A DNA stretch of 24,000 bases from an uncultured Prolixibacteraceae bacterium. Lineage in GTDB: Bacteria > Bacteroidota > Bacteroidia > Bacteroidales > Prolixibacteraceae. Every line of letters starts with the position of its first letter. Positions within the stretch are counted from its first letter, which is position 1. Shown one piece after another: positions 19,240 to 24,000 of the stretch. The stretch spans positions 1,742-25,741 of the forward strand of contig CAJXZG010000080.1 in assembly GCA_913063265.1 (NCBI GenBank), read 5' to 3'. The position numbers and the translations under genes were made by a program. The notes under the pieces are model-generated. The model made no database searches. It was given only the letters and a program-made list of their open reading frames with translations, and was not told the origin of the DNA.

Positions 19240-19341
19240 AGGATTAAAGGTAAAAGTAAAAAGGCAAAAGGCAAAAGATGGCAGTTCACCCTTTTCTGCC
19301 CATCGGCAGACAGGGACTACGCCCGGGATGACCTCGCTGGT

Positions 19342-22118: not shown

Positions 22119-22856
22119 ATGGTTGATTATCGGCAACAAATTCTTCCGGATGTGCTGCACTGGCAAACGCTAATGCTTAAAAAGCCAACGCTGGTGAACA
22201 GGTGGTCGAAGGGTGTGCAAGTAAAAATTAATTCGTGGATACCCGAAAAAGTACACCGGGCCATTACGGTTACCCTTAAACAAATGATTCGCGGGGTTTT
22301 GTTCGGGGCCAATTATACTGCTGCCAAACCTTTAAACGGCCTGTCGTTGGAAGCACAGGAAGCCGCCATTAACGAACGGATTAAATTTTACAAATCTACG
22401 GCTGCCGTAGAAGGAGGAATAACAGGGGCAGGAGGTATATTGCTGGGCTTTGCCGACTTCCCGATTTTACTGGCGCTTAAATTAAAAATGCTGTTTGATA
22501 TGGCTTCGATGTATGGTTTTAACATTAAAGATTATAAGGAAAGGGTGTACATCCTTCATATTTTCGAACTGGCATTTTCAAGTCATGTCCACCGGCGAAA
22601 AGTCTACCTCAATATGGTTGACTGGGAACAAAAAAGTAAAGATCTTCCGGAAGATATCCACCAGTTCGACTGGCGAAATTTTCAGCAGGAATACCGCGAC
22701 TACCTCGACCTGGCAAAAATGGCGCAAATGATACCCCTTGTAGGCGCACCTGTTGGTTTTGTGGTCAACTCGCGCCTGGTAAAAAAACTTGGAAAAACGG
22801 CAATGAATGCGTATCGGATGAGGATTTTGGAGAAGGAGAAGGAGGATGAGAGTTGA
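22119..22856 (+). CDS. EcsC-family protein
   Basis: 245 aa with an ATG start. The pattern is ...KINSWIPEKVHRAITVTLKQMIRGVLFG... followed by a glycine-rich segment AAVEGGITGAGGILLGFADFPILLALKLKMLFDMASMYGF, as remembered for EcsC (PF12787-type) proteins. Confidence 0.7.
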   Translation: MVDYRQQILPDVLHWQTLMLKKPTLVNRWSKGVQVKINSWIPEKVHRAITVTLKQMIRGVLFGANYTAAKPLNGLSLEAQEAAINERIKFYKSTAAVEGGITGAGGILLGFADFPILLALKLKMLFDMASMYGFNIKDYKERVYILHIFELAFSSHVHRRKVYLNMVDWEQKSKDLPEDIHQFDWRNFQQEYRDYLDLAKMAQMIPLVGAPVGFVVNSRLVKKLGKTAMNAYRMRILEKEKEDES

Positions 22857-22962
22857 GAGTTTAAAGTTTAAGGTTGAAAGTTTAAAGTTTAAAGTTCAAG
22901 GTTTAAAGTTGAAAGTTTAAGGTTCAAGGTTTAAAGTTGAAAGTTTAAGGTTGAAAGTTTAA
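22851..22962 (+). repeat. Tandem heptanucleotide array, 16 copies of RGTTNAA
   Basis: agttgag agtttaa agtttaa ggttgaa agtttaa agtttaa agttcaa ggtttaa agttgaa agtttaa ggttcaa ggtttaa agttgaa agtttaa ggttgaa agtttaa. The first unit contains the ecsC-family stop codon (22854-22856). Confidence 0.9.
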
Positions 22963-23316
22963 AGGAGATGAGATAGGTTTCAGAAACTACTCCGGAATTT
23001 CACATTAGGGTTGTAAAATCCTTTCACTTTAGAACTATTATTACACTTGTCTTTTGTGTCAGATGTTTTAGTATAATTATTTTTATTTCGTCCGGGATAA
23101 CAAGCATGCGTTGAACAACTTTCGACGCCGGACGAGTTCTTCCTCTATCATTTACCCGGCGTTACACACCGGGTTATTAATGTTTAATCCTTTCAGGATT
23201 ATTGAGATAGACACTGAAGGTGTCAAATAAAAACATAAGTACATAAACGGCAAAGAATGTGGCTTATCGGGAGCAATTTTTGTAAGTTTGAAATTGAATC
23301 TTCTAAATCAAATCGT

Positions 23317-24000
23317 ATGAACAGAATTCTGCTTCCGGTTTTGCTTTTGGTACTGGTTGTTGCCGGCTGTACAAAAAAGGACATGCTTGTTGAGTTTAAT
23401 TCCGGGATTTTTAAAATTGGCATCAATAAACAGGGATTTGTAAATCAACTTACCGATTTAAGAAGCAATACAAATTACTGTTCAGGTGATACCATAGCTC
23501 CACTTCTTTCCTATCGCTTAAATGGGAAATTTTATTATCCTGTCCTCACTTCATTGGAAGAAAATTATCTTGTTTTTCATTTTGAAGGGAATAAAAATGC
23601 CAAAGTAAAAGTGGAAGAAAAACCAACACACATTTCTTTTGAACTGGTGGAGTTTAATTCGGCTGAAACGTTAGACTTGATTGCCTGGGGCCCGATACCC
23701 ACTACAATTAAAAAAAGTATAGGCGAAACAGTTGGTGTGGTGCGCGGAGAAAATTTTGCTATCGGAATACAGGCACTAAATATAAAAACGTTGGGTGGAT
23801 TCCCGTGGACAGACAACGATTGTATGCCACAATTCGATATTTTTGAACAGGAAGATTATTCCGATTTAAGCGAAGAAAACAAACGAGAAGTGTTATACCG
23901 TGTGGAAGCTGCCAAACCGGAAAAATTTGGAAGTACCTTGCAGGCCTACTGCCGAAACCGATTTGAGGAAAGAGTAATTGAAAACCTTAATCACAAAAAC
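23317..24000 (+). CDS. Lipoprotein of unknown function, 3'-truncated by the window edge
   Basis: This ORF is not in the track because it has no stop. From the ATG at 23317 I hand-translated 228 codons to the window end without a stop. The N-terminus MNRILLPVLLLVLVVAGCTKKD has a lipobox (VAGC). Confidence 0.7.
   Translation, partial: MNRILLPVLLLVLVVAGCTKKDMLVEFNSGIFKIGINKQGFVNQLTDLRSNTNYCSGDTIAPLLSYRLNGKFYYPVLTSLEENYLVFHFEGNKNAKVKVEEKPTHISFELVEFNSAETLDLIAWGPIPTTIKKSIGETVGVVRGENFAIGIQALNIKTLGGFPWTDNDCMPQFDIFEQEDYSDLSEENKREVLYRVEAAKPEKFGSTLQAYCRNRFEERVIENLNHKN

Follow-up and report, generated by a model that had tools for sequence, protein, structure and literature searches.

A heptanucleotide tandem array at the stop codon of an ecsC-family gene is probably an expanded microsatellite

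The ecsC-family gene of a Prolixibacteraceae-type Bacteroidota genome ends inside an array of sixteen tandem heptamers. We consider this array to be, most probably, a heptanucleotide microsatellite that arose from (A/T)GTTTAA at the ecsC stop by slipped-strand mispairing or unequal exchange. A graded series of unit numbers at orthologous ecsC stops, a higher-order repeat of 28 nt within the array and a genome-wide excess of arrays with a period of seven together point to an expansion seeded on the context of the stop codon. From these sequence comparisons slippage would be the generating process, and we infer that the array has no function specific to this locus, being at most a weakly structured 3'-UTR or spacer.

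Results and Discussion

The array and the ecsC stop codon

In the window (the whole stretch of 24,000 nt that was analysed) the array consists of 16 head-to-tail heptamers of the form RGTTNAA on the plus strand, at positions 22851-22962, with no interruption. Unit 1 is AGTTGAG. The other units are AGTTTAA (seven), AGTTGAA (two), AGTTCAA (one), GGTTTAA (two), GGTTGAA (two) and GGTTCAA (one). Apart from the final G of unit 1, no unit departs from GTT in positions 2-4 or from AA in positions 6-7. The original prediction had described 16 uninterrupted units that vary at positions 1 and 5, and this description is correct; its placing of the array start 3 nt before the ecsC TGA is also borne out, the TGA (22854-22856) forming positions 4-6 of unit 1. 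A list of the features discussed here is given in Table 1.

TRF extends the array to 22964 by a partial 17th unit (AG), which gives a total of 114 nt, and the plus strand of the array contains 28 G and 2 C. The best TRF period is 28 (4.1 copies, 90% matches, score 172), while periods of 14 and 21 give 82% and 84% matches; the array is therefore organised as a four-unit higher-order repeat. Eight of the nine differences among the four 28-nt blocks are found at heptamer positions 1 and 5, for which our own binomial estimate gives a probability of about 3e-4 under uniform mutation. A pattern of three RGTTNAA units has 13 overlapping matches in the window, against none in each of 100 dinucleotide-preserving shuffles.

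The overlap between array and gene is not confined to the stop codon. Immediately before unit 1 there is a degenerate heptamer, GGATGAG (22844-22850), which is identical to unit 1 at five of seven positions and sits in codons of the EcsC C-terminal tail (..EDES). On our reading of the sequence, loss of unit 1 would add 20 array-encoded codons to EcsC. The coding region is thus not fully insulated from changes in the array, given both the degenerate unit within the last ecsC codons and the longer protein that loss of unit 1 would produce. For the tail itself (..EKEKEDES, window 22829-22850) the coding sequence is a run of purine-rich GGAGAA hexamers and then the degenerate heptamer. The tail is lineage-specific, as alignments with orthologues stop at residues 235-240, and it may itself be repeat-derived.

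Table 1. Positions of the repeat arrays and genes discussed in the text. Positions are those of the window unless a contig of the draft genome (G000) is named.
Feature	Location	Strand	Basis
Second heptamer array, AAAGGCA/AAAGGTA, about 4.6 units	19246..19277 (G000:C80:20987-21018)	+	TRF
ecsC-family gene, 245 aa, PF12787 (E=4.7e-85); 3' end abuts array	22119..22856	+	ORF, profile match
Degenerate heptamer GGATGAG, in phase with array	22844..22850	+	Sequence reading; TRF row 22847-22861, period 7
Heptanucleotide tandem array, 16 full units and partial 17th	22851..22964	+	TRF, pattern match, base counts
TGA stop of ecsC, positions 4-6 of unit 1 (N=G variant, AGT TGA)	22854..22856	+	Sequence reading
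S23p gene	G000:C12:79714-80031		PF05635; among loci L101-L110
S23p gene	G000:C9:33323-33637		PF05635; among loci L101-L110
S23p gene	G000:C186:1941-2255		PF05635; among loci L101-L110
S23p gene	G000:C44:20311-20625		PF05635; among loci L101-L110
S23p gene	G000:C18:14427-14750		PF05635; among loci L101-L110
S23p gene	G000:C3:58243-58557		PF05635; among loci L101-L110
S23p gene	G000:C3:60242-60547		PF05635; among loci L101-L110
S23p gene	G000:C103:14919-15206		PF05635; among loci L101-L110
S23p gene	G000:C109:8478-8759		PF05635; among loci L101-L110

The gene downstream of ecsC most likely starts at the ATG at 23318 (MNRILLPVLLLVLVVAGC, which encodes a lipoprotein-type signal) rather than at 23257, and this start lies 353 nt past the end of the array. 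The sequence TAAGTTTG at 23283-23290 matches the -7 promoter motif of the Bacteroidota, which we take to be TAnnTTTG. Between the array and the downstream gene there is a dispersed element of about 180 nt (window 23050-23229, plus strand). It has two copies of 88% identity on the minus strand of one contig (G000:C15:71427-71606 and C15:71747-71926) and one of 81% on the minus strand of another (C7:99165-99343), with weaker matches in genomes of the same genus. Three conserved hairpins, TCGTCCGG..CCGGACGA, ACCCGG..CCGGGT and AATCCT..AGGATT, and in addition a GACAC-TGAA-GGTGTC hairpin are common to all four copies. The element has no Rfam match, and its four copies vary too little for covariation to be assessed. 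A small RNA, a leader and a MITE are all candidates for its identity.

Orthologous ecsC genes in related genomes

The closest orthologues of EcsC, in other genomes and in metagenomes, have about 80% amino-acid identity. In metagenome contigs, a protein-guided scan detected no relative that exceeds 80% identity and a search with the exact flanks had no match; no strain-level relative was present among the genome and metagenome collections searched. A look-up of the exact protein gave a single further record with an identical EcsC, which has the same 16 units; it is a JGI metagenome contig, which may come from the same population.

The orthologous loci form a graded series. In L001/L084 and in L009 ecsC ends in one (A/T)GTTTAA unit that holds the TAA stop. 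About 2 units are found past the ecsC stop in L083/L006, and 4.4 and 5.6 units are found at the stop in L007 and L012 respectively, both of which are MAGs labelled Draconibacterium. The numbers of units at orthologous ecsC stops, compared between species, are therefore 1, 2, 4.4, 5.6 and 16. In L007 (3720-3750) and L012 (773-811) the AGTTNAA units encode the last 5-8 codons of EcsC together with the TAA stop, so that in some relatives the microsatellite donates the end of the protein. The resulting tails, ..VESLKFKV and ..SLKLKV, each ending at the stop, are made of the residues that the EcsC of the window would gain if unit 1 lost its TGA. According to the original prediction, a change in copy number could not shift the frame of ecsC, as only the stop codon lies inside the array. 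The frame indeed cannot shift, but ecsC may still be affected, since the ORFs of these relatives read 5-8 codons into the array.

Other words occur at the 3' end of ecsC in further relatives. A Mariniphaga MAG (L008) has ATAGGGC/AAAGGGC repeated 15 times, L020 has 12 copies of CGGAAGA, and GTCATCG and GTTACGA are found in L013 and L004. No heptamer array like these was found at ecsC orthologues of the Chitinophagaceae. A period-7 array is present at the stop in 7 of 48 distinct orthologous loci with at least 70% identity, a count that does not include the array of the window, which TRF reports only at periods 14-28, and in 2 of 100 orthologous loci with 60-70% identity, mostly from Chitinophagaceae. 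In L007 an AAAGGCA array, similar to the second heptamer array of the window, is located upstream of ecsC (2114-2142).

Heptamer arrays across the genome

The genome searched is a draft of 5.49 Mb with 35.8% GC, in which the array is on contig C80. Genome-wide TRF, with a threshold of at least 4 copies, identified 116 arrays of period 7, compared with 24 of period 6, 16 of period 8 and 13 or fewer of any other period. Period 7 thus exceeds every other period about fivefold. On a crude map of ORFs of at least 100 aa, 99 of the 116 period-7 arrays are intergenic, despite 88% of the genome being coding. Merging and a filter for true lag-7 periodicity left 109 arrays, which cover 4.3 kb altogether; among these the ecsC array is the longest, and the runner-up has 96 nt. 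Heptamer periodicity is present at only one of 380 contig ends; assembly has therefore not cut the catalogue short to any great extent, and few longer arrays should be hidden.

The arrays use dozens of heptamer words, including AAGTCGG/AAGACCG, TTGGTTA/CTGGATA and AAAGGCA. The word NGTTNAA is used by 18 arrays, one of them at ecsC. In the 17 others the frequency of the major base is 0.79 at position 1 and 0.57 at position 5, and 0.92-0.96 elsewhere. A search of the genome for further RGTTNAA arrays, which the original prediction had proposed, therefore returned several, and the array is not unique. Together with the orthologous arrays, this genome-wide family clearly sets aside the case of an isolated array that is absent from relatives. 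A second heptamer array is located within the window itself (AAAGGCA, 19246-19277); 6 nt to its left a minus-strand ORF has its start codon. Elsewhere in the genome (G000:C119:8334-8877) there is a module of about 160 nt in three copies, in which 21-nt repeats of the AGATTGATGGA type alternate with CCTTTTG heptamers.

Expansion by slippage

These data suggest how the array may have formed. The seed would be an (A/T)GTTTAA with the ecsC stop codon inside it, expanded by slipped-strand mispairing or unequal exchange. Growth would have been directed away from the gene, and the ORF would for that reason have retained a stop, which here is the TGA of an N=G unit and in relatives the TAA a few units inside the array. 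The lineage would both produce and tolerate 7-nt arrays in its intergenic DNA. Slippage was one of three readings in the original prediction, the others being bent DNA and an array of binding sites, and it is the best supported of the three; the support is indirect, and consists of the contrast between 1-5.6 and 16 units, the 28-nt repeat and the roughly fivefold excess of period 7.

Two observations do not fit a plain, neutrally decaying microsatellite. Variation is limited to positions 1 and 5 both within the array and in its 17 sister arrays, and the word has persisted at ecsC across genomes with EcsC proteins of only about 78% identity, which would be a long time for a neutral microsatellite.

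Orientation of arrays at gene boundaries

The arrays of this genome obey a rule of polarity. Where an array abuts an ORF, its G-rich strand points away from that boundary in the 5' to 3' direction, at starts and stops alike. The test set was the 89 intergenic arrays that are flanked by an ORF on each side and differ in their counts of G and C. In 55 of them an ORF boundary is found no more than 10 nt from the 5' end of the G-rich strand (28 stops and 27 starts), and in 13 it is found at that distance from the 3' end. The median distance to the boundary is 7 nt for the 5' end versus 70 nt for the 3' end, and the 5' end is the nearer one in 67 arrays against 22 (p=1.9e-6). Arrays at the loci of other genomes show the same tendency (24:9, p=0.014); ecsC flanks are over-represented in that set, which is only partly independent. 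In terms of the RNA sense strand, arrays are G-rich just after stops, and C exceeds G in arrays 1-9 nt before start codons. Both arrays of the window, the G-rich one at the ecsC stop and the AAAGGCA array, follow the rule.

We considered three causes of this polarity and rejected each. Background composition does not account for it, as array-free intergenic DNA has approximately zero skew at stops, and a skew of +0.11 to +0.13, reading outward, only in the first 20 nt beyond the start. Replication strand, judged from local GC skew, does not predict the orientation of arrays (35:47, p=0.22), nor does the strand of the majority of genes (33:49). The polarity therefore holds in this genome without an explanation in replication strand or background composition, and it suggests some constraint, mechanistic or selective, beyond simple slippage.

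Possible functions of the array

One form that such a constraint could take is a functional element with many sites, in which a protein with a 7-nt register would bind the DNA or the RNA of the ecsC 3'-UTR and would thereby determine where the transcript ends, how stable it is, or whether it continues into the next gene. Candidates are cold-shock-type OB-fold proteins, ribosomal protein S1, Rho and the four-helix-bundle proteins of the S23p family. The fixed GTT..AA with free positions 1 and 5, seen here and in the 17 other arrays, speaks for such an element, and its variants recur across the phylum. The strict polarity at ORF boundaries fits a strand-specific role at the level of RNA. At least three species retain the word at the ecsC stop, heptamer arms show a strong association with S23p genes, and a binder of TAACTGA arrays has been argued for (MacGregor 2015, PMC4679880).

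Against this, the number of units ranges from 1 to 16 among orthologues, and other orthologues have unrelated words or none. The dozens of array words within one genome cannot be explained by one sequence-specific binder. In a sample of 401 Bacteroidota genomes from 180 genera, four-unit arrays of RGTTNAA occur in 28 genomes and 25 genera, and four-unit arrays of AANTTGR, a control made by reversing the word, in about 19 genomes; since the control is nearly as common, RGTTNAA itself is not special. No candidate gene adjoins the ecsC array. We therefore regard an element of this kind as rather unlikely, though more likely than the alternatives below.

No Rfam 15 family matched the window at its gathering score, and none reached E<=1 in 22700-23400. 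A scan for terminators and promoters found no terminator-like site, and one weak promoter-like match (9/12) within the array. The predicted RNA fold is a weak, AU-rich self-pairing (-19.9 kcal/mol over 136 nt, z=-3.4), which arises from the TTTAAA and TTGAA/TTCAA quasi-palindromes and is not a convincing structure.

A more specific proposal is that the polarity is functional and that the arrays are directional insulators, the one at ecsC shielding its gene from antisense read-in. RNA running toward a gene would cross a G-poor version of the array, with C exceeding G, in the sense direction at a start and in the antisense direction at a stop, and RNA leaving the gene would carry the G-rich version. 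The arrays might then act as loading sites for Rho or for a reader of single strands in a 7-nt register, for which the S23p proteins would be obvious candidates, their genes being bracketed by such arrays. We think it improbable that the arrays work in this way. If the polarity did prove functional, it would imply a widespread and unrecognised layer of gene-boundary signals in Bacteroidota.

The association with S23p genes suggests a further origin for the array, as the surviving G-rich left arm of an S23p (23S-IVS) hairpin cassette that has lost its cargo and right arm. In cassettes of this type a small gene sits between a G-rich arm and a C-rich arm complementary to it. The genome contains ten PF05635 genes, and 5 of the 10 have a flagged array within 120 nt, compared with 3.2% of all ORFs (odds ratio 31, p=7e-6). 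By eye, short heptamer arms bracket 9 of the 10, and whichever strand the gene is on, the left arm is G-rich and the right arm C-rich; the gene at C7:84953-85222 has no arms, and the two arms at the C18 gene are in direct rather than inverted orientation. A search of the accessible literature found no published link between S23p and heptamer repeats. The ecsC array is in the orientation of a left arm, and its word forms both arms of the S23p gene on C186 (AGTTTAA at 1844-1876 and ACTTTAA at 2277-2307) and part of the right flank at C9:33708. However, no inverted partner is present within 500 nt (the best score, 19, equals background), the spacer 22965-23317 has no S23p-like ORF, and the orthologues indicate graded growth from a single stop-codon unit rather than a decaying cassette. 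Most arrays in the genome are solo, with an inverted partner within 500 nt in only 5-8 of 89, and as the ecsC array has neither partner arm nor adjoining S23p gene we treat it as solo too; descent from a cassette would be a surprise.

Finally, intrinsically curved DNA, in which phased A-tracts would act on nucleoid structure or promoter geometry, is very unlikely. The single argument for it is the arithmetic by which 21 bp approximate two helical turns, and the curvature prediction that the original note had called for gives straight DNA. In a wedge model, for which a phased A6 control behaves as expected (125 degrees), the predicted net bend over 112 bp is 6 degrees and the ratio of end-to-end distance to contour is 0.998; random genomic 112-mers bend by 34 +/- 18 degrees, and the array is straighter than 97% of them. 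With a period of 7 bp the units lie 240 degrees apart on the helix, so the bends of three successive units cancel. In addition, TTTAAA, which contains the flexible TpA step, does not count as an A-tract, as is known from Hagerman-type comparisons of T4A4 with A4T4.

Comparison with known repeat systems

The ecsC array is best seen as a new case in the known class of heptanucleotide LSSR or STRR-like repeats, and not as a new device. It has the features of this class, namely tandem 7-nt units, a genome-wide excess of period 7 and variation in copy number between species.

The STRR heptamers of heterocystous cyanobacteria were reportedly described by Mazel and colleagues in 1990. STRR repeats comprise several words per genome in dispersed intergenic arrays, and their function has remained unexplained for decades. 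The arrays described here likewise use multiple words per genome and are dispersed between genes. They occur in another phylum, and the STRR words (CCCCAGT, TTGGTCA, CAACAGT) differ from the AT-rich ecsC array. With a host from the Prolixibacteraceae-type Bacteroidota and the word RGTTNAA, the ecsC array therefore lies outside the STRR family proper.

Phase-variable contingency loci, as in Haemophilus and Neisseria, have repeats within the ORF or between promoter elements, with units mostly of 1-5 nt. They too are slippage-prone tandem repeats adjoining a gene. In contingency loci a change in copy number switches expression, in contrast to the ecsC array, which follows the stop and lies about 350 nt before the next start. 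We rejected this class, as the array extends from 3 nt before the stop to 353 nt before 23318 and only the C-terminal tail of EcsC could change.

The S23p cassettes of this genome resemble the array in that their arms are short heptamer arrays, with the G-rich arm first, and in two cases use the same AGTTTAA word. They differ in having a partner arm and an S23p gene; the ecsC array has no inverted partner and none of the ten PF05635 matches is on C80, and it was not assigned to this class. Curved A-tract DNA, in which tracts phased at about 10.5 bp add up to net planar curvature, was rejected on the predicted bend given above.

The LSSR survey of Mrazek, Guo and Shah (2007), as it is summarised in PMC4679880, describes heptanucleotide LSSRs as the commonest class of long SSR in prokaryotes. 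In that summary the LSSRs share with our arrays the tandem 7-nt units and a period-7 excess that is specific to particular genomes, are mostly non-coding, and have slippage as their proposed generator. The rich genomes named there are those of Burkholderia, cyanobacteria, actinobacteria and Xanthomonas, and the summary contains no Prolixibacteraceae, no RGTTNAA and no polarity of arrays abutting gene boundaries.

Taken alone, the ecsC array is an ordinary example of a class of repeats that has been described since 1990 and is still unexplained. The locus has a modest value in its orthologous series, from one (A/T)GTTTAA stop unit to 16 units, which illustrates how such arrays arise and how they remodel the C-termini of proteins.

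A close parallel is provided by the TAACTGA arrays found in marine Beggiatoaceae, in cyanobacteria and in five Bacteroidetes (MacGregor 2015, PMC4679880). These arrays are also intergenic, lie a few nt from start codons and keep one orientation, and they are missing from relatives at the same loci. Long arrays and other heptamer direct repeats were noted in Gramella, Aequorivita and Elizabethkingia in the same study. It differs from the present analysis in treating a single other word, for which translational regulation was proposed, and it gives no general rule of polarity and no link to stop-codon context. In Flexibacter litoralis the TAACTGA arrays are forward before starts and reversed just after one stop (PMC4679880), which is the same flip as that seen here.
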